A DNA stretch of 64,000 nucleotides, taken from a virus. Made by a program: the position numbers and the translations under genes. The notes under the pieces were generated by a model that was not told the DNA's origin, did no database searches, and saw only the letters and a program-made list of their open reading frames with translations. Below are positions 3,671 to 64,000 of this stretch, in pieces; position 1 is the first letter of the stretch; the number at the start of each line of letters is the position of its first letter. Location: positions 9,131 to 73,130 of IMG/VR virus record IMGVR_UViG_3300025732_000035. The stretch is one strand, 5' to 3'.

Positions 3671-4018
3671 ATGCACGATCCTGTTAAAAATCCTCGCCAC
3701 TATGCCAAAAACGGTGGCATTGAATGTATTGAGGCTATCGAAGCCTCAATGGACAAAGACGGCTTTAAGGGTTTCCTAAAGGGAAATATCATCAAATATG
3801 TTTGGCGCTATGAAGACAAGAATGGCTTGGAGGATTTGAAAAAAGCGAGCTGGTATCTTGACCTTCTCATCTTTAATATGGAAAATGAGCCACAGCAAGA
3901 AGCAATTGAAGCTCTTGAAAACGCCTCTCAGCAATGCGAAGGAGGATTTTGTCCGATGCCAGGTGTCCGTTACGATCTTCCAGGAAAACAAGTGATGTTT
4001 GCTCCCGTCGAAAGCTAA
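3671..4018 (+). CDS. DUF3310 / T7 gp1.7-like nucleotide kinase domain protein
   Basis: DPVKNPRHY, IECIEAI, GNIIKYVWRY, KNGLEDLKKASWYL. Confidence 0.85.
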   Translation: MHDPVKNPRHYAKNGGIECIEAIEASMDKDGFKGFLKGNIIKYVWRYEDKNGLEDLKKASWYLDLLIFNMENEPQQEAIEALENASQQCEGGFCPMPGVRYDLPGKQVMFAPVES

Positions 4019-4497
4019 GCAGCACTACAACAAAGCCCCCATAAGGGGGCTTTTTCATGTTCAATTGATTGATGCATCGGCAGGACAATCCCTTTCTTCT
4101 CGCACCATGCTTCAAGCTCTTTTTGGTCGGTGTGAGCACTAACAAAACTATTGCAATATACCCACGCCATTAAAATTTCTTCTTGCTTTTCAGTCCAAAA
4201 TTGCTGAGGACGCCACCATTCAAAAAGGTTTTCATTGCCTTTGGAAAGGTTGCAAGCTCGACAAGAAGGTACAAGATTAAATTTACTAAAATGAGGCCCT
4301 CCCTTGCTCTTTGGAATAATGTGGTCGATTGTAAGCTTTTCTTTCCATTCTCCGCAATATGCACAGGCGCATTGGCCAAATGGTCCCCTTAAAAAATAGT
4401 CTTCAAAGATGCTTTTGCGAAATCTGCGTTTTGCATCACCAGGGCGAAGTTCAATGAGAGAGTAAAGCAGCTCATCAGGACCATTCGCTCTTAGCAT
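4015..4497 (-). CDS. HNH endonuclease
   Basis: CAYCG, LTIDHIIPKSKGG, NLVPSCRACNLSKG. Confidence 0.9.
   Translation of the reverse strand: MLRANGPDELLYSLIELRPGDAKRRFRKSIFEDYFLRGPFGQCACAYCGEWKEKLTIDHIIPKSKGGPHFSKFNLVPSCRACNLSKGNENLFEWWRPQQFWTEKQEEILMAWVYCNSFVSAHTDQKELEAWCEKKGIVLPMHQSIEHEKAPLWGLCCSAA
4032..4055. terminator. Bidirectional intrinsic terminator-like hairpin
   Basis: AAAGCCCCC-ATAA-GGGGGCTTTTT at the junction of convergent genes. Confidence 0.65.
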
Positions 4498-4576
4498 GGC
4501 ACTATTAAATTGTCTTGCCCATAGTTTAACGCTAAATAATGCCTCGTGAATTTTTATAGAATAAGCGTATTGATTG

Positions 4577-4792
4577 ATGGCTATGGACAGTTTCAAGGAG
4601 GGCCTTGCAAATTTTGTAGCCACCATCACGGCTGGCATGTTGCTGTCAACAGGCGCCATGCTTATTGCAGTGGGCACTCAGCAAGCAAGAGTGGCAGTGC
4701 AAATTGAAAGCATCACCGAAAAGCTAAGCGTGCTCACAGACAAGATGAGTGACATTGAAACAAGAGTGCGCAGTTTAGAAATTAAGCGCTAG
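4577..4792 (+). CDS. Membrane/coiled-coil lysis-module protein
   Basis: N-terminal transmembrane segment plus coiled coil, upstream of the endolysin. Confidence 0.55.
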   Translation: MAMDSFKEGLANFVATITAGMLLSTGAMLIAVGTQQARVAVQIESITEKLSVLTDKMSDIETRVRSLEIKR

Positions 4793-9443: not shown

Positions 9444-9755
9444 TCAAGCCCAGGGAAGGCCAGTGCCAGTTTTCGGCTCACGCTGCTGTTCAATTTGCTG
9501 AGCAAGAGCGTCTTCAATTTCGGCAACTTTTTCGTCGCCAAATTTGTCCTTCACCCAGCCGATGACAATTTCGGGGGTGAGCTGAGCATACGGAATGGCT
9601 TCGTCTTCTTCGGGAGCTTCAAGACCAAGACTGCCATAGGCCGAGCTTGCATAAGTGCCATCATCGGCGGAGATCGTATAGTGAACAGTGCCCACGTAAC
9701 CATTTGAAAGCGTGCGGTCCATATTGGCCACCGCCCATTGATAAGTAATTGCCAT
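9444..9755 (-). CDS. Tail-fibre-associated small protein (assembly chaperone-like)
   Basis: IPYAQLTPEIVIGWVK...GLPW pattern typical downstream of fibre genes. Confidence 0.65.
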   Translation of the reverse strand: MAITYQWAVANMDRTLSNGYVGTVHYTISADDGTYASSAYGSLGLEAPEEDEAIPYAQLTPEIVIGWVKDKFGDEKVAEIEDALAQQIEQQREPKTGTGLPWA

Positions 9756-9830: not shown

Positions 9831-9844
9831 AGTGACGTGGACTA
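9831..9844 (-). repeat. Boundary site 1, TAGTCCACGTCACT
   Basis: Its TAG is the stop of ORF 9842..10363. Confidence 0.8.
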
Positions 9845-10363
9845 ACGGGGTTTCCAGCGGACAAGGTTCCGCAAGGTCACAAGTGTGTACCTAGTCCACT
9901 CATCACCAATTGAGCCATCAATGGGGTACAACTTGCTGTACCACCAGGCGTACTGCTCGGGATTGATCTCCTGCAACCGTTCAAGCATTTCTGCGATGTC
10001 AACACAAAGATCGGGGTCAGGCCAAGCTTTGTCGGCTACCTCCATCAGGTGATCAACAAAGCGTTGAAGCTCCTCACGGCTACCGAAGATTTGCTCGTAC
10101 TCACCATCGGAGTCGTTGCACAGCAGGACTTTGCCGTTCTTGGCCCAAGCGTAGTGCTGGTAGATGCCTTCGCTTGGGTCGTAATAAAAATCTGGAAAAT
10201 GATGTGAACTCATCTGCCCAAAACTAAGGAAATTGGCGCGGTAGTCTGTAAGCCATTCTTCGCCCATCAACTCTACCAGCTCTTCGCGGGTCAAGTTGTG
10301 GATCCATTCAAGACAAACTTTGAAACGCCACTCGTTTTCCTCCGGTGTAATGTCGTCAAGCAT
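9842..10363 (-). CDS. Acidic hypothetical protein (cassette cargo)
   Basis: 173-aa ORF bounded by boundary sites 2 and 1. Confidence 0.7.
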   Translation of the reverse strand: MLDDITPEENEWRFKVCLEWIHNLTREELVELMGEEWLTDYRANFLSFGQMSSHHFPDFYYDPSEGIYQHYAWAKNGKVLLCNDSDGEYEQIFGSREELQRFVDHLMEVADKAWPDPDLCVDIAEMLERLQEINPEQYAWWYSKLYPIDGSIGDEWTRYTLVTLRNLVRWKPR

Positions 10364-10366
10364 ACG

Positions 10367-10380
10367 AGTGAAGGGGACTA
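10367..10380 (-). repeat. Boundary site 2, TAGTCCCCTTCACT
   Basis: Ends 3 nt upstream of the ATG at 10363. Confidence 0.8.
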
Positions 10381-10395
10381 CCGAGTCTCATGTAC

Positions 10396-10424
10396 TTGAC
10401 AGGTTAGACCCAATGTGCTATAGT
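10396..10424 (+). promoter_or_regulatory. Near-consensus sigma70 promoter
   Basis: TTGACA-17 bp-TATAGT with an extended -10 TG. Confidence 0.85.
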
Positions 10425-10461
10425 GGTGTTAAGGGGAGAGATCCCCACTGCACCTAGAAAA

Positions 10462-10647
10462 ATGAATTACCGCACAGTTAAGGCTGTTCGAGACGAGCTG
10501 CATCGCCGTGGTGGTTGGCTCGAAACCATCAAAGACACCGAACGACCTGAGTACGCCCCGCATCTTTCTTTTGAGGAGTCGGGATGGATTCATGGGATTT
10601 GGATCAAAGATGAGTTGCTTGCTTGGGCAGTTGAAAACTTGAACTAA
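10462..10647 (+). CDS. 61-aa hypothetical protein, inverted relative to the operon
   Basis: ATG ORF between its own promoter and terminator. Confidence 0.7.
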   Translation: MNYRTVKAVRDELHRRGGWLETIKDTERPEYAPHLSFEESGWIHGIWIKDELLAWAVENLN

Positions 10648-10653
10648 CCACTG

Positions 10654-10677
10654 GCCCGCCTTAGAGCGGGCTTTTTT
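10654..10677 (+). terminator. Rho-independent terminator
   Basis: GCCCGC-CTTAGA-GCGGGC-TTTTTT. Confidence 0.85.
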
Positions 10678-10763
10678 GTGCCGGGGATCCTGCAATACAA
10701 GACCCGCTGGTCGGGGAATACAGGGGGCCTCGCAGTGGCTATCGACCCCCCGGCAACCCTTTT

Positions 10764-10777
10764 AGTGAGTAGGACTA
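10764..10777 (-). repeat. Boundary site 3, TAGTCCTACTCACT
   Basis: Its TAG is the tail fibre stop codon. Confidence 0.8.
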
Positions 10778-12904
10778 CGAGAGCTGGGCTTTAACAGCAG
10801 CCATCTCGGATTCCAGGGTTTCGATACGGAGCTGCGCCTCTTGCAGTGCCTTGATGGCCATCCACATCATCTGCTGTTCTTTGACACCGATGCGCTCTTC
10901 CTGAGCAGGCTGGTCCTCAGTTGCTTCCTTGGCTTCTTGGAAGACGGTAATCACTTCCGGGCAGCTTTCCGCCACCTGCTGGGCAATTACACCCATGCTC
11001 AAGTCGGCTTCGTCTGACTGGTCCTTGTAGCGGAAGTTGACGATTTCCCATTCTTTTAAGCAGTCCCATGTGCCAGCGGCAGGCGCGATGTCCTTTTTGA
11101 CGTTGCGGTCAGAAAGGTTGACGTTATTGGCGCTGTAATTAGCTATGCCACCATTAGACCGAATTGTTGCTCTTTCCGTCGTTGCGCCAACACACTGCAG
11201 AAAAAAGCGCGTACCATCATTTTGATCATTTGCTGTTTCAATGTATAAACCGTATTGCTGACCACTGGCGGCTGTGGACCTTATATATACAGATACGATA
11301 TCATCTGCGTTATTAACAAATTCGTGAAAAGCGGCAGTAGAGTTGATATAACTACCAGTATTTGTAGCCTTAAAGGCACCTCTTTGAGTGATTCTTGCCC
11401 GCTCCGTAGGGCTGCTCGCTCCGTCGGCAGTAGTGGAGAACACTAAGCACGTTGGATGGCTAGTACCAGCGGTCCATGTACCGTCACCGTTCGCAGAGAT
11501 AAATGCGCCAGCGTCGTTAGCAGAATTGGCGAAGCTGATATAGCCAATCGTGCTACCAGCGGATGCAGTAGTTGCGTTCCGCTGGATATTTATTGCTCCA
11601 CCGGCAGCAGTAGTTCCACCTTGGACGATAAATTTAGCCTCGGCAGAACTAGAAGACGTGCCCACTAAAAATCGACCACTTGAATCCCAGCGGCCACGCT
11701 CAGTCCCGTTTGTACCAAACAAGACAGGATGCGCTCCTCGCGCCCATCCCCCATAGACATTGTTAGAGGAATCTTGACCGTATAAAGCACTGCTGGTTTG
11801 CGGGGTATTTCCGTTCCCTGCCATCTCCAGTAGGCAGTTTTGGCCTGAACCATTTGCAACCCAAACATCACCACCAGCGCCATTGCTGACGATGTGTAGC
11901 TTAGTGCTAACTGAAGTAGTGCCAATCCCTACGCGCTGTGACGAGTCAATAGTTACTGCACGTGTGTTTCCATTCGTGGCAAGAATTAGATTTGCTTCTG
12001 CGCGAACAAGCCCATCGGTAGCTGCGGATCCACTAAGCCAACTTGAACCAGCGGTTCCGGTATAAAGAGCTTGAGTGCCTGATTGAAGAAATACCGTGCC
12101 ACCGCCGCCGGCGGTGGTGGTATTGACATAGAGCGGTTGATAAGAGCTACCAACAATATGCAGTTGGCTATTCGCATCTGGGCTAGAAGTCCCCAGACCT
12201 AGAGCACCTGTCGAAGTGAGGCGCATGCGCTCGGCGCCACCTGCGCCAAACTGCATACTTTCAGAGCCAACTGCAGTGAGCACAAGCCTTCCGGCCGCCG
12301 ATCCATGTGACTGGCCAAATGCGAGAATGTTCGCACCTGCACCAGCACCATCTCCACCATCAATCCGGATATAACTAGTTGCAGAAGTTTGAGAAATTTC
12401 ACCAATAGATACTTTAATGTTTCCACTGCTATCAACAAACAACCGCCCAGTGCCATTAGTCGAGATGGCTAATTGGTCTGCGCCGGGTGAATAGAGGCCC
12501 GTATTCGTGTCGCCCGAGAAGTAGAGCCCTGGCGATCCAGCCGAGCCGGCGATGATGCCGAGCGCGCCGGTCATTACGTCGCCGTTGACGTCCACGAACG
12601 TGCCGGATTCGCTGCGCCATGCGCCACCGTCCCACACCTTGAACACATAGGTGTCGCCGGTAGTATCAAGCCATTGCTCACCCTTGGAATTGCCAGCAGT
12701 GCCGCCGCTTGCAGGACTAACATTAGGCGCAGTCGTGCCTACGTGTACAGGCCCCACTTTTACTAAATTGCCATTGCTGTCCTTAAAGAACATGCCAGGG
12801 CTTCCACTTGCATAGTTAATGGCAACTTGCCCATCAACCATGGAAGCAGGATTGGGACGCTTATCCAGCGTCGAGGAACGTAAATGCTGAAGAACGCCAG
12901 CCAT
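10775..12904 (-). CDS. Tail fibre with C-terminal peptidase S74 chaperone domain
   Basis: Repeated ERMR...G.GT.S modules; LSDRNVKKDI, GVIAQQV, terminal coiled coil. Confidence 0.9.
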   Translation of the reverse strand: MAGVLQHLRSSTLDKRPNPASMVDGQVAINYASGSPGMFFKDSNGNLVKVGPVHVGTTAPNVSPASGGTAGNSKGEQWLDTTGDTYVFKVWDGGAWRSESGTFVDVNGDVMTGALGIIAGSAGSPGLYFSGDTNTGLYSPGADQLAISTNGTGRLFVDSSGNIKVSIGEISQTSATSYIRIDGGDGAGAGANILAFGQSHGSAAGRLVLTAVGSESMQFGAGGAERMRLTSTGALGLGTSSPDANSQLHIVGSSYQPLYVNTTTAGGGGTVFLQSGTQALYTGTAGSSWLSGSAATDGLVRAEANLILATNGNTRAVTIDSSQRVGIGTTSVSTKLHIVSNGAGGDVWVANGSGQNCLLEMAGNGNTPQTSSALYGQDSSNNVYGGWARGAHPVLFGTNGTERGRWDSSGRFLVGTSSSSAEAKFIVQGGTTAAGGAINIQRNATTASAGSTIGYISFANSANDAGAFISANGDGTWTAGTSHPTCLVFSTTADGASSPTERARITQRGAFKATNTGSYINSTAAFHEFVNNADDIVSVYIRSTAASGQQYGLYIETANDQNDGTRFFLQCVGATTERATIRSNGGIANYSANNVNLSDRNVKKDIAPAAGTWDCLKEWEIVNFRYKDQSDEADLSMGVIAQQVAESCPEVITVFQEAKEATEDQPAQEERIGVKEQQMMWMAIKALQEAQLRIETLESEMAAVKAQLS

Positions 12905-46991: not shown

Positions 46992-47065
46992 GCCCTCGTA
47001 GCCCAATCGGAAGAGGTATTCGGTTTAAGCCCGAAGGAGTGTCAGTTCAAATCTGACCGAGGGTA
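46992..47065 (+). tRNA. tRNA-Leu(TAA) with a short variable loop
   Basis: Acceptor GCCCTCG/CGAGGGT; anticodon arm TTCGG-TTTAAGC-CCGAA; T arm GTCAG-TTCAAAT-CTGAC; no encoded CCA. Confidence 0.85.
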
Positions 47066-50650: not shown

Positions 50651-51229
50651 TCAGCTCGCCGGAACGATCAAATCGTTAAGAAAAGCATATGATCCATGCA
50701 GCTCAGAAGCTGCTTTGTTGTAGGCCATCGCGGCCTCTTCTTCGGTGGCAAAAGTACCCAGGTATTTACGCTTTTTCTGCCAATCAATATATGCCATCCA
50801 TGGCTTATTTTCTGAACGCTTATTTCTGCAGACGCCCTTAAATTGACTCGACGTGAGTTGATTCCTCTTAGGGGCATTCGCCCTGTTTTGAGAATCGGAA
50901 ACAAGACGCAAATTCAATGGATTGTGATTGAATTTATTCCCATCAATGTGATCAATTTGATATTCGCTTGGATCAACCTTGTAATGCAAAAAATAAACAA
51001 TGCGGTGGCCAAGAAATAGAACGTCCTTTCCTTCCACTCGAATGCCCACTTGAAAGTAGCCCGTACTGCGACTTCCGCTTGTATCTTGCCATCCAGCGTG
51101 GTCACCAGGCTTGAGCTTTCTGCTGCGAGGATTGCGCCAAGAAAGCCAGCTTGGACTTTCGGGGTCAAGAATCAACAAATCCTCCAAGAGCTGCAATGAA
51201 GGAAGAGAACGATGTGCTAGCTTTGCCAT
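50651..51229 (-). CDS. HNH-AP2 homing endonuclease
   Basis: HRIVY, IDHIDGNKFNH..NLR, SSQFKGV, YLGTFATEEEAAMAYN. Confidence 0.9.
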   Translation of the reverse strand: MAKLAHRSLPSLQLLEDLLILDPESPSWLSWRNPRSRKLKPGDHAGWQDTSGSRSTGYFQVGIRVEGKDVLFLGHRIVYFLHYKVDPSEYQIDHIDGNKFNHNPLNLRLVSDSQNRANAPKRNQLTSSQFKGVCRNKRSENKPWMAYIDWQKKRKYLGTFATEEEAAMAYNKAASELHGSYAFLNDLIVPAS

Positions 51230-51304
51230 GTCATCTAGTAGTAGTAGGTGGCCAGAAGCGGAACGCGCCAACGTTGCCGCTTCACAATATTTTAGCAAAT
51301 GGCT

Positions 51305-51496: not shown

Positions 51497-52216
51497 AATG
51501 CTTTATCGAAGATCATCTCACGCTAATCGTTATCAAGAATTACGTAAGTAGGTTTTAATACTTTCTCCACCTTTGTGTCTGTATTACCATTGAATCCTTA
51601 AGAAAAACGGAAAAAATTTGGGCTTTTGTATCACTACGATACCAAAAACATCACATTTGAGCCACGGTGCGAGATACGATAGCTAAAGCGGAGCTGCTGC
51701 CTAGTGCAAGCAAGAGCAGCACCGCTGGTCTAGACGACGTTCCTCAAGCCAAAGCACCCTGGCAAGTGGAGACGCCCCAAGCGTCGGAACGTCTACTAGC
51801 TAAAAGGCTAGACAAGCCGCTTAATTCTCATGAAGTGGAGCCCCCAAAAGGGCGGAACGCTCCAGACAAGCGGCGAAACACCAAGGGCTGATCCAGATCC
51901 TAAGTAATGGGTCGCGCATACTATGCGTCGCTGCGGGAAAAGCAAAAAATCATTGATTTCCATCTTTATCTTCTGAGCAGCGGCCCCTTTAAGGGCCGCT
52001 TTCTGGCATTAAGAGCAATGCAAAGAAGGAATGCGCGAATCGTTAGCGCTTGCTTTTGATTAGTGCGTCATTCCGACGCCTTTAGGGCGTCTCCATTGGT
52101 CTAGAAAATTGCTTGAGATCTCTAGAGATGCCTCAGGCGGCGTCTTCGACTTGCCTTCGGCATAGTGCAACTAGCTTTTTACTCGTTAAATTTTGACGAA
52201 AGCACGCTGCCTCTTA

Positions 52217-52645
52217 ATGAATCCTGGCTTGCTACAAGGCAATCTCTTCTCAATCCTCTTAAGTAATTCACATGCAACTGAAGCAACTAAAACTTGTCAG
52301 CTCTGCAAAGAATCAAAACCACTAATCGCTTTTCCTAATCAACCTCGCAATAAAGATAATCTTGATTCTCGTTGTAGAACCTGCATTCGACAACACACTA
52401 AATTACGTGCTCGCTTAAAACGAAAATTTCCAGTGCCTCCTCCAGGTTTATGCCCTATATGCCATCGCTATACAGAAGAATGGGTGCTTGATCATTGTCA
52501 TAACACTGATGCCTTTCGTGGTTACATCTGTAGATCATGCAATCTTGGCCTTGGTCATTTTGATGACAATCCAGATCTTGTCCAAGCTGCCCTTGATTAC
52601 TTGCTAGGTATAAATACTAAAGGCGATTTTCTAGATGAAAAATGA
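52217..52645 (+). CDS. Endonuclease VII-like HNH nuclease with N-terminal Zn finger
   Basis: CQLC, CRTC, CPIC, LDHCH..FRGYICRSCNLGLGHFDDN. Confidence 0.88.
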   Translation: MNPGLLQGNLFSILLSNSHATEATKTCQLCKESKPLIAFPNQPRNKDNLDSRCRTCIRQHTKLRARLKRKFPVPPPGLCPICHRYTEEWVLDHCHNTDAFRGYICRSCNLGLGHFDDNPDLVQAALDYLLGINTKGDFLDEK

Positions 52646-54950: not shown

Positions 54951-55043
54951 AAACAAGCCTTTTTTCAGCCGTGCCCTAAACAAGCCAAAACCCAGCCGTG
55001 CCCAATTTTTCAAAACAAGCCTTTTTCTATCCGTGTCCAAATT
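54951..55043 (+). repeat. Three imperfect direct repeats AAACAAGCC...CCGTGYCC
   Basis: Direct reading of the sequence. Confidence 0.75.
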
Positions 55044-55626
55044 TGCTATACCACTTTGCCCGGATCCTGCCACGAAGATTAAGGTCTTGATGGCGCCAAC
55101 TATCAAAACGACAAATCTTTTTAATAGTTCCATGCGAAACATTTAATTCTTTTGCAATGGAATAAGCGCTTTCACCATATTTCACGCGCAAACGAACTGC
55201 TGTAATTTGCCGCGATGTAAATTTAGCATTTTTCTTTGCCTCTCCACAGGCTTGCAGTCCATTATCCCAAGCGTGCTTTGCGTTGTCGCTGTTTGTGGTC
55301 CATTCAAGATTAGAAATATGATTATTAAGTTTATTTCCATCTTTATGATTTACACACCATTTATCGCCACCAGACCCTATTTCCCCGGGCGCAGGAGGCA
55401 TCCAAGTAAGACGCATTAAATAATGAATAGTACGAGGTTGTTTCTTCTTGTTATTCTCCGTGATTAGCACCCATGGATAATCTTTGCTTCCGCTGGTTTG
55501 CGGACTCATGAGTCTTGATTTGGCAAGACTCCACACCTCGCCCTTCTCATTGATGAAATAGCGTCCGTTATACCCAGGGATCTCCTTAAACCCTGTAGGC
55601 ACGCTGCTATGCTTATTTGTAGCCAT
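55027..55626 (-). CDS. NUMOD4-HNH homing endonuclease
   Basis: FKEIPGYNGRYFINEKGEV, VNHKDGNKLNNHISNLEWTT..NAKHA. Confidence 0.9.
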   Translation of the reverse strand: MATNKHSSVPTGFKEIPGYNGRYFINEKGEVWSLAKSRLMSPQTSGSKDYPWVLITENNKKKQPRTIHYLMRLTWMPPAPGEIGSGGDKWCVNHKDGNKLNNHISNLEWTTNSDNAKHAWDNGLQACGEAKKNAKFTSRQITAVRLRVKYGESAYSIAKELNVSHGTIKKICRFDSWRHQDLNLRGRIRAKWYSKFGHG

Positions 55627-55711
55627 GGCCAAACTCCTCTTGGTAGTGGTTAGAAACGTCACGAGATGCCAGTCTCGCGTCGTTTCGCCATGCTAACAAT
55701 TATTTCAAGCT

Positions 55712-63466: not shown

Positions 63467-63568
63467 ATGGTATTTAGCAAAACATGCTTTGATACCTGGG
63501 ACAGAGGCATGGAGCCTCTTCCTGGTGATACTACGTGGGCAAAGAAAAAGCCCCTTAAGGGGCTTTAG
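63467..63568 (+). pseudogene. Diverged second copy of the 3' end of 62620..62799
   Basis: FDTWDRGMEPLPGDTTWAK vs YDDWNVGLEPIPFDSTWKK, 10/19 identical. Confidence 0.55.
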
Positions 63569-63678: not shown

Positions 63679-63693
63679 AGTGGGGTCTGACTA
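63679..63693 (-). repeat. Boundary site 4, TAGTCAGACCCCACT (15 bp)
   Basis: Its TAG is the stop of ORF 63691..63867. Confidence 0.65.
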
Positions 63694-63867
63694 CAAAGCT
63701 TTGATCCGTTCAGCAAAGTCCCGCAGCGATTGCATCTTGCGCTGCTCGTAGCTGCTCCAGGTGTCGCTGATGTCTTCGGTTGGGTCACTGGGGCTGGTCA
63801 GTGCCCAGCAATCTGGGAAGCACAGACCTGCATCAAGAGCGGCTTGGATGATCTGTTGGTCAGTCAT
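63691..63867 (-). CDS. 58-aa hypothetical protein (cassette cargo; absent from the ORF track)
   Basis: MTDQQIIQAALDAGLCFPDCW...RDFAERIKAL, filling the space between two sites. Confidence 0.7.
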   Translation of the reverse strand: MTDQQIIQAALDAGLCFPDCWALTSPSDPTEDISDTWSSYEQRKMQSLRDFAERIKAL

Positions 63868-63868
63868 A

Positions 63869-63882
63869 AGTTGATCGGACTA
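63869..63882 (-). repeat. Boundary site 5, TAGTCCGATCAACT
   Basis: Its TAG is the upstream stop; the next ATG follows after 1 nt. Confidence 0.75.
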
Positions 63883-63999
63883 CTGGGCTTCAAGTTCGTC
63901 AGCAATTGCACGCTGCTCTTTTAGGGCTTGCTTGTACCCCCATTCAGCAGCAGCGTAAAAGCTGGCGCAGGATCCTTTAATTTTCTCCCAGTCATCAAC
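63880..63999 (-). CDS. 3' end of a hypothetical protein (truncated by the window)
   Basis: Open frame ...EQRAIADELEAQ*. Confidence 0.6.
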   Translation of the reverse strand, partial: VDDWEKIKGSCASFYAAAEWGYKQALKEQRAIADELEAQ

Positions 64000-64000
64000 C

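Follow-up and report, generated by a model that had tools for sequence, protein, structure and literature searches.

The window considered here is a 64,000-nucleotide (nt) stretch of viral DNA, bases 9131-73130 of a single 73,130-bp IMG/VR record (IMGVR_UViG_3300025732_000035; 47% G+C), the source of which is an S-CBS4-like freshwater cyanosiphophage. Five copies of a short motif, TAGTC-N6-ACT with a variable core, are found in it in two clusters. It is near certain that this is a junction motif bounding exchangeable gene cassettes. The preferred reading, with a probability of roughly 0.55, is that it acts as a portable 14-nt stop-restart linker, and that recombination at short homology exchanges units consisting of an open reading frame (ORF) and its 3' site.

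A stop-codon motif in two short arrays

The strict pattern is matched four times in the window, always on the minus strand (9831, 10367, 10764 and 63869), against a mean of 0.88 in shuffled sequence, and four matches were reached in only 1 of 100 shuffles. The form with a 7-nt core is matched twice (63679, minus, and 22754, plus, the latter unrelated) against 0.65 expected, which alone is not significant. No further copies are present in contig bases 1-9130. Since the pattern was chosen after the sites had been seen, a matrix was derived exclusively from other contigs, with 66 of their unique junctions (38 without the variant that served as bait in the contig scan described below) and with this genome and its near-copy L010 excluded. 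The four 14-nt sites score 12.2-31.5 bits, and the site at 63869-63882 scores 31.5 or 18.4 bits; the best scores in the reversed-sequence control, 7.4-8.7 bits, are far lower. A chance origin of the sites is ruled out by this independent scan and by their recurrence in relatives.

The original prediction concerned the second array (Table 1). Both sites that it placed there are present on the minus strand, at 63869-63882 and 63679-63693, and they belong to the same motif family as those of the first array. The former is indeed the stop of an ORF ending in ELEAQ (family B), and 1 nt past it an ATG (63865-63867) opens a 58-aa ORF (family A). For the latter, the predicted stop is confirmed but the adjoining start is not: on its 3' side lie about 110 nt of non-coding DNA and then a hairpin, and no start codon abuts it. 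Its core is one base longer, as had been noted, and TAGTCAGACCCCACT equals TAGTCAGACCCACT, a variant common in relatives, with one C inserted; TAGTCAGACCCACT follows the homologue of the 58-aa ORF in L003, L008 and L009. The count of four stop-supplying sites among five also stands, the exception being 10367-10380. The term “genome-wide” has to be dropped, as the genome holds five sites and one degenerate copy in two short clusters, and relatives have one array each.

The array shares its parts with other viruses. The cut-off family-B ORF aligns with the C-termini of 60-107-aa ORFs in L004, L005, L006 and L112. The TAGTCCGATCAACT 14-mer recurs unchanged in other viral contigs, where it occupies 71 distinct valid junction contexts among the matches listed. 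In a five-way alignment, all sequences diverge directly after the site at 63679-63693, and the sequence around the hairpin at 63547-63566 is homologous to the downstream flanks of the arrays in L006 and in G002, a close relative treated below.

In the first array, the TAGTCCTACTCACT site provides the stop of a tail-fibre gene. The same site also ends tail-fibre genes in L012, L019 and, as a one-letter variant, L017; in L019 and L017 the tail-fibre stop lies inside the site with core CCTACT and the next ORF starts 3 nt later. The site at 10367-10380 is preceded by just 16 open codons, and the TAGTCCCCTTCACT variant precedes a homologous ORF in L010, L013 and L014.

Viral contigs were scanned with the 14-mer of the site at 63869-63882 (the bait variant), which gave at least 117 loci, some of them chance matches in unrelated contigs. 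Other loci were gathered via cargo proteins; many loci are close relatives, and pairs of them are not independent. After removal of identical 140-nt contexts, 179 distinct strict matches are counted across the gathered loci and this genome, a figure that, like those that follow for the contigs, refers to the matches and loci listed. Counting ORFs of 30 codons or more, 124 of them are in-frame stops, 97 have an ORF that opens with ATG within the next 15 nt, and 81 combine the two and are thus both stop and start junctions. At least two sites within 1.5 kb occur in 54 of the 105 site-bearing loci. The arrays comprise 2-6 sites (the maximum, six, in L112) spaced by about 90-550 bp; all are co-oriented, and the motif copies point along transcription. 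The cores CGATCA, AACATC, AGACCC and CACCTC recur together with others, often in the order AACATC, CACCTC, CGATCA, AGACCC, while the cargo differs. The TAG is often preceded by CAG, and the codons before it often read ...GCCCAG.

The flanking ORFs fall into 54 single-linkage families, and about 20 unrelated families are flanked by the same 14-mers. The largest family, which includes the ORF at the window end (family B), has 115 members; these are small proteins with a variable middle, an N-terminus M-S/T-E-L-S-P-A-A-Q-A-V-L and a C-terminus ...L-A-I-A-D-E-L-E-A-Q. At the 49 junctions where neither neighbour belongs to this family, the motif positions are conserved and the flanks are not. Other cargo includes family A and DUF3310-type, phrog_419-type and phrog_32006-type proteins, and most of it has no annotation; no Pfam or PHROG match was obtained for the 58-aa ORF, family B or the 173-aa ORF of the first array. 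The phrog_32006-like family is the commonest array neighbour and has a helical model, and family A is predicted to be a three-helix protein (pLDDT 82 for family A, 82-83 for the two models); neither model has a PDB match at E <= 0.001.

Homologues of the 58-aa ORF carry the motif at their stop in 9/9 loci, in the strict form in 6/9; of the remainder, L002 and L004 have TAA for TAG and L005 ends in GCT. Upstream of the seven full-length homologues, a strict site is present in three, a variant in L002 and none in L001, L003 and L007. In L008 and L009 (L008:2537-2614 and L009:3810-3887) a truncated family A copy, its last 20 codons, is fused directly to TAGTC; the joint seems to have formed illegitimately or at micro-homology within an array. 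Many family-B-like and phrog_32006-like ends do without the site. Of 59 B-like ends chosen by protein pattern, 23 are strict, 14 have another TAG context (mostly one-letter variants), 15 are TGA and 7 TAA; 26 phrog_32006-like genes chosen in the same way comprise 10 strict sites, 4 one-letter variants, 1 decayed site and 11 TGA ends without a site. In these two families the site is frequent yet dispensable.

Sites as boundaries between exchanged modules

When related phages are compared, the gene neighbourhood changes at the sites, which makes them mosaic boundaries. Nucleotide homology that reaches a site-bearing gene end stops there in 688 of 774 locus pairs (89%), against 1967 of 5572 (35%) for other gene ends. 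The order of the cargo changes as well: family B precedes family A in the window, L004, L002 and L001, and A precedes B in L005 and L006. Despite the swapped order, L006 shares genes on both sides of the array with this genome.

A further comparison is with G002, a complete 73,391-bp record with terminal repeats. Its capsid protein is 99% and its Sak-like protein 86% identical to those of this genome, and it is collinear on both array flanks at 78-91% identity. Homology between the two genomes ends exactly after a site-like element (...TTCTACACACT, L141:21-34, minus strand) and resumes shortly past the last site. The G002 array consists of a phrog_32006-like gene, site AACATC, an 82-aa B ORF, site CACCTC, a 156-aa ORF, site CGATCA, a 72-aa B ORF and site AGACCC. 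In this genome, 7 bases of a gene start are followed by the contig break, the end of a B ORF, site CGATCA, family A and site AGACCCC. These near-identical phages thus have their last two sites in common but different cargo at them, and the copies bound the differences between the phages.

The core indicates which side of the junction travels. When only site pairs with at least one non-bait variant are considered, the same core is found in 16 of 25 pairs sharing only the upstream flank, in 5 of 26 sharing only the downstream flank, and in 168 of 2369 unrelated pairs, which give the background. The core is therefore tied to the upstream flank, and the mobile unit is an ORF with its 3' site. The swapped gene orders, the cargo replaced between the same sites in G002 and the homology blocks that end at the sites uphold the part of the predicted cassette system that concerns exchangeable ORF units bounded by the motif. 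Nothing points to a dedicated recombinase, with no PF00589 or PF00239 match in the genome.

The first array offers a further case. Between its first two sites lies a 383-bp opposite-strand unit with its own promoter and terminator signals, which looks like a classic moron; it is missing in L019, L017 and L012, where the next ORF directly follows the tail-fibre site. Relatives of the 173-aa cassette ORF share only its N-terminal 45 residues, as 46-aa ORFs. Metagenome contigs diverge at or beside the site at 9831-9844 (X8 record 28, X17 record 14, and X12 with a joint 9845>10044). In the X12 contig, 9846-10043 is replaced by 33 other letters that start one base from the site; in the X8 contig (1242 nt), foreign sequence is joined inside the site and the contig fits the window from 9834 onward only; another contig fits only up to 9843. 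These joints come from assembled contigs of other studies and are weak evidence.

The arrays are also found outside the immediate relatives of this phage. A single array of 3-4 sites is present in each of G002, G003, G004 and G005, three of which are 90-100% complete; over these genomes as a whole, the pattern is not matched more often than its backwards control. No homologue of this capsid protein or of the Sak-like protein is detectable in G003-G006 (the records behind L051, L077, L088 and L111), and of five records with the same 14-mers, four are without a detectable homologue of this capsid protein. As G003-G006 carry the same 14-mers without the capsid homologue, cassettes or sites cross phage lineages. 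In several of these four records a family-A DNA polymerase gene lies beside the array. Records spanning 45-64% GC, with diverged coding sequence beside the sites, contain identical variants. In S-CBS4, the closest isolate, the pattern is matched only once, at a place where it does not serve as a stop, and there is no array.

Two 20-mers spanning the motif had 0 exact matches in 185,579 prokaryote species genomes, by which a host or prophage origin of the motif was ruled out. A search of the main texts of openly accessible papers found no description of the motif, and the three commonest 14-mers occurred in 0 papers. The motif appears to be undescribed in cyanophages.

Proposed short-homology exchange and the competing explanations

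According to the preferred reading, exchange would take place by recombination at the short shared motif. Where genes of the commonest cargo family (B) are neighbours, their conserved ends would lengthen the homology. General recombination functions of the phage or its host would supply the enzymes, and no dedicated integrase would be needed. Pairs of annealing protein and exonuclease can act on short, imperfect homology, and the genome encodes a Sak-like single-strand annealing protein and an exonuclease. The motif itself may be kept intact as a compact stop-restart junction, with ribosomes passing between cistrons via an unstructured, G-poor spacer that lacks a Shine-Dalgarno (SD) sequence. 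That the homology-driven mechanism and the restart function hold jointly is given a probability of about one half.

The junctions have features that fit such a restart. RNA prediction makes the start region at site junctions less paired than in controls (0.61 vs 0.41), their G content is 12% vs 23%, and an SD-like 4-mer is present in 1 of 81 site junctions vs 22% of 150 control junctions. In the 81 stop-and-start junctions the ATG lies at 1-14 nt, and in 49 of them at 1 or 3 nt; it is in frame with the TAG in 43/81. None of the five sites coincides with a promoter-like or terminator-like match. Inverted symmetry in the motif is limited to TAGT/ACTA, 3-4 nt, only where A follows ACT, and there is no hairpin. 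At the gathering threshold Rfam reports a tRNA only, so that a known RNA family was ruled out. The sole Rfam or ARAGORN match in the window is a single tRNA-Leu with anticodon taa (46992-47065, plus strand); a suppressor tRNA or TAG recoding was likewise rejected, with only this tRNA present and the ATG and TAG in frame in only the 43 junctions mentioned.

Several observations weigh against this reading. A length of 14 nt is short for homologous recombination. The Sak-like gene is present only in this genome (G000) and G002, that is, in one of the five other records searched, and cannot therefore be the general agent. A single superfamily with conserved ends accounts for much of the cargo (the 115 of the clustered flanking ORFs), and plain paralogy could explain part of the junction conservation. 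These genes do not need the motif for their expression: 15/59 family-B-like and 11/26 phrog_32006-like ends are TGA without a site. Among valid sites, 43/140 have no ORF starting within 15 nt, which is a misfit to a pure restart signal. The conservation of whole 14-mers across 45-64% GC is not obviously explained by either the short-homology or the restart model. The pairs behind the homology-boundary count are not independent, and because one variant or cargo proteins served to gather the loci, homology is concentrated around the sites and the bait variant is over-counted. Finally, the arrays sit in accessory regions, which are mosaic anyway.

The motif might instead be purely a gene-expression element, acting in translational coupling or initiation or as the site of a phage or host factor that binds RNA or DNA. 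Mosaic boundaries would then be incidental, since a conserved sequence of any kind attracts recombination. The fixed orientation with transcription, the ATG 1 or 3 nt past the motif in so many junctions, their SD-less, G-poor and weakly structured character, and the conservation of whole 14-mers across lineages all agree with this explanation. So does the retention of TAG where no stop is required (TAGTAGTC in L053, L100 and L013, and the site at 10367-10380), and the start-associated sequence (SAS) repeats of Cluster K mycobacteriophages show that elements of this kind exist (PMC3203893). It is nevertheless unlikely to be the whole explanation. The core follows the upstream ORF and not the downstream one, the 43 sites that lack a following ORF include the last site of each array, homologous genes manage without the motif, and no binding factor has been identified.

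A second explanation, a true site-specific cassette system or “phage integron”, would have an unrecognised recombinase act on the 14-nt sites, with the 6-nt core as specificity or overlap region and cassettes excised and inserted as ORF plus 3' site units. The array architecture in one orientation, the same composition of the unit, the limited set of core variants in recurring order with differing cargo, and the presence of the same sites in lineages that do not share the capsid gene are what such a system would be expected to produce. The recombinase itself was sought. PF00589 had 0 matches in G000, G003, G004 and G005 and one in G002, 20 kb from the array, with controls positive in 14/14 genomes, and PF00239 had none in 5/5 records, again with positive controls; this genome and G003-G005 thus lack a tyrosine or serine recombinase match. 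PHROG scans of 88/122 contig ORFs, with the structural block 12978-34940 outside the scan, show no integrase. No recombinase-like gene recurs beside the arrays, and the commonest neighbour, the phrog_32006-like protein, is the helical model without a PDB match. The motif is far shorter than known recombinase sites, its inverted symmetry is minimal, and one-letter variants are common at every “conserved” position. An integron-like site-specific mechanism is unlikely, and in this explicit form it is quite improbable. A further reading, for which the odds are low, is a cassette-exchange system common to unrelated lineages of freshwater cyanophages, with an ORF and its 14-nt 3' site as the unit, in which the 6-nt core would be a slot address and co-infecting phages would swap cargo slot by slot; lytic viruses would then have their own equivalent of the integron, one that works without an integrase or with a novel recombinase.

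The HNH endonuclease gene beside the second array was tried as the agent of exchange and rejected. The gene with its flanks (to about 63540), some 777 nt, has no counterpart in G002 and is an insertion, and HNH genes adjoin only 8 of the 54 array-bearing loci.

It is very improbable that the motif is a passive remnant, that is, the functionless inherited gene end of arrays made by tandem duplication of a small gene and its spacer. Most flanking ORFs do belong to one superfamily in which both the N- and the C-terminus are conserved, conservation often extends to the codons before the TAG, and sites drift by single substitutions. However, unrelated genes, among them those for tail fibre, DUF3310-type, phrog_419-type and family A proteins, finish with the same 14-mers, the 49 junctions outside the large family keep the motif positions and not the flanks, and identical variants persist in the 45-64% GC records although the adjacent coding sequence has diverged.

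A promoter of a phage single-subunit (T7-type) RNA polymerase is close to refuted: the right half of the motif resembles the conserved right half of such promoters, a likeness limited to a CACTA-like element, and the sites precede small early-type genes, but PF00940 is found in 0/10 array-bearing records including this genome (the control S-CBP3 being positive), the core is linked to the upstream gene, and the ATG, 1-3 nt from the motif in most junctions, is too near for a transcript to include it.

Genomic setting, related systems and significance

The record is classed in IMG/VR as linear without end repeats, with a CheckV completeness estimate of 100%. The major capsid protein shares 86% identity with its counterpart in S-CBS4, a Synechococcus phage of the siphovirus type whose host is Synechococcus sp. 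CB0101, and the tail-fibre DNA of the window matches Synechococcus phages. The record is contained in 20 public runs labelled freshwater or aquatic metagenome, with no RNA run among the sequencing runs that contain it. Apart from the recombination-type genes mentioned above, the genome has structural genes (tape-measure, tail, portal, terminase) and genes of nucleotide metabolism or replication (ribonucleotide reductase, ThyX, dCTP deaminase, primase/helicase). The window also contains four HNH and one endonuclease VII genes. Directly downstream of the first array lies a DUF7936 / phrog_7802 gene (9444-9755, minus strand; E 5e-36), and its DNA is conserved in Synechococcus phages S-CBP1, S-LBS1 and KBS-S-2A.

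Table 1. Positions of the junction sites, cassettes and nuclease genes in the window
Feature	Position	Strand	Remarks
HNH endonuclease gene	4018-4677
Junction site TAGTCCACGTCACT	9831-9844	-	TAG is the stop of the 173-aa ORF
Cassette ORF, 173 aa	9842-10363	-	relatives share only the N-terminal part
Junction site TAGTCCCCTTCACT, core CCCCTT	10367-10380	-	3 nt before the ATG of the 173-aa ORF; not used as a stop
Moron-like insert, 383 bp	10381-10763	+	opposite strand, between two sites
Sigma-70-like promoter of the insert	10396-10424	+	strong; TTGACA-17-TATAGT with TG
61-aa ORF of the insert	10462-10647	+	no family match
Terminator of the insert	10653-10672	+
Junction site TAGTCCTACTCACT, core CCTACT	10764-10777	-	TAG ends the 709-aa tail-fibre gene (10775-12904)
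HNH endonuclease gene	50654-51298
Endonuclease VII gene	52193-52642
HNH endonuclease gene	55030-55662
HNH endonuclease gene, 222 aa	62765-63433	-	phrog_374, E 5e-63; outside the cassette unit
Terminator-like hairpin and T-run	63547-63566	-	closes the transcription unit of the array
Junction site TAGTCAGACCCCACT, 15 nt, core AGACCCC	63679-63693	-	TAG stops the 58-aa ORF; last site of the array
Family A cassette ORF, 58 aa	63691-63867	-	homologues in 9 IMG/VR loci
Junction site TAGTCCGATCAACT, 14 nt, core CGATCA	63869-63882	-	TAG stops the upstream ORF ...ADELEAQ
Family-B ORF, 3' part, 39 codons (...AIADELEAQ)	63883-64000	-	cut by the contig end

The window edge at 64000 is the contig end, and the opposite contig end holds the start of the array, so that the array does run past the window edge, as the original prediction had suggested it might. 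The two contig ends do not abut, and the assembly broke within the variable array despite the CheckV estimate. One end breaks off after the first 7 bases of a gene (ATGACTC, resembling the phrog_32006-type gene of L005), the other starts mid-way in a family-B ORF, and joining them gives no canonical start for this cut-off ORF. The degenerate site-like element (...CAGTTCTACACACT) at L141:21-34, minus strand, lies near a contig end. Assemblies that break inside such arrays, as this contig did, are a practical nuisance that is now explained.

A different disturbance is seen in the tail-fibre gene. In run X6, the summed contig depth is 1538 and 1715 at the segments 11319-11519 and 12324-12524, vs about 5 nearby, and loose contig ends are numerous at 11399, 12423 and 12431. 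Both segments are common to many other phages of the X6 sample. The fifth-best matrix match (12458-12471), with its TAG out of frame, lies inside one of these high-depth segments. Runs X8, X12 and X17 give little or no cover at about 10.4-12.3 kb, and this was not used as evidence.

The closest analogues among known systems are the SAS repeats of Cluster K mycobacteriophages and the PeSLs of T4-type phages. SAS is a 13-bp asymmetric repeat in one orientation and with a function given as unknown (PMC3203893). It lies a few bases before the start codons of non-structural genes from different families (PMC3203893); in the cyanophages an ATG follows closely at the 81 stop-and-start junctions, and no ORF starts within 15 nt of 43 of the 140 valid sites. 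Like the cyanophage motif, SAS sometimes has the stop of the upstream gene inside it and is absent from host genomes (PMC3203893). In contrast, SAS holds a Shine-Dalgarno core and is near-invariant in sequence (PMC3203893), whereas the cyanophage motif has an SD-like 4-mer in only the single junction of 81, a fixed 5' TAG, a variable 6-nt core and linkage to the upstream gene. It is also clustered in one or two short arrays and coincides with mosaic boundaries.

PeSLs combine a sigma-70-like promoter with a terminator stem-loop (Arbiol et al. 2010, PMC2839356). Like the cyanophage motif, they are short, recur between small ORFs that are not essential, and belong to hyperplastic regions, where recombination between copies explains insertions, deletions and replacements among near-identical phages (PMC2839356). 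The cyanophage motif differs in having neither promoter nor terminator, in lying inside a polycistronic unit and in carrying a stop codon. Mini-circles, the circular excision products, are a PeSL feature; the cyanophage data are assembled contigs of public runs.

Two mycobacteriophage elements are more distant. The stoperators of Cluster A are short asymmetric sites placed along transcription in short intergenic spaces, but they are numerous genome-wide and bound by the immunity repressor (PMC9283540, PMC4351075); the cyanophage genome has five sites in two clusters, a variable core and no identified cognate repressor. Two copies of a 17-bp repeat of Cluster O flank Corndog gene 14, one copy is found in relatives, and recombination at the repeat has been invoked (PMC4351075). 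This gene between two repeat copies matches the moron between the sites at 10764 and 10367, but the repeat of Cluster O is palindromic and scattered through the genome (PMC4351075).

The comparison with integrons concerns architecture. The cyanophage motif likewise places an ORF with a 3' site in co-oriented arrays. Integron cassettes form co-oriented arrays of mostly promoterless small ORFs with a 3' attC, a site that can overlap the stop codon. However, this genome has no intI-type recombinase, and no attI or Pc was identified in it. The site is 14-15 nt long, whereas attC is a far longer hairpin-forming imperfect inverted repeat. Integrons are located in bacterial chromosomes, and the cyanophage motif in virulent-type phage genomes. 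As the motif differs from each known system in a defining feature, it is a member of none, and it is best placed with the junction motifs that recur in accessory regions of phages.

The modular theory of phage evolution has regarded “linker” or boundary sequences as points of exchange. To our knowledge, no defined stop-codon motif was ever attached to this classical idea. Whether phage mosaics result from random exchange followed by selection or from special linker sequences is an old dispute. In abundant uncultured freshwater cyanophages, whether or not they share the capsid gene, a defined and searchable motif now marks the points at which small accessory genes are exchanged. It gives a handle for finding accessory-gene arrays in viromes, and these arrays plausibly hold host-takeover or counter-defence genes. 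The junctions also provide an example of stop-restart without a Shine-Dalgarno sequence in cyanophage operons, and the motif as a whole is a testable case for short-homology modular exchange.

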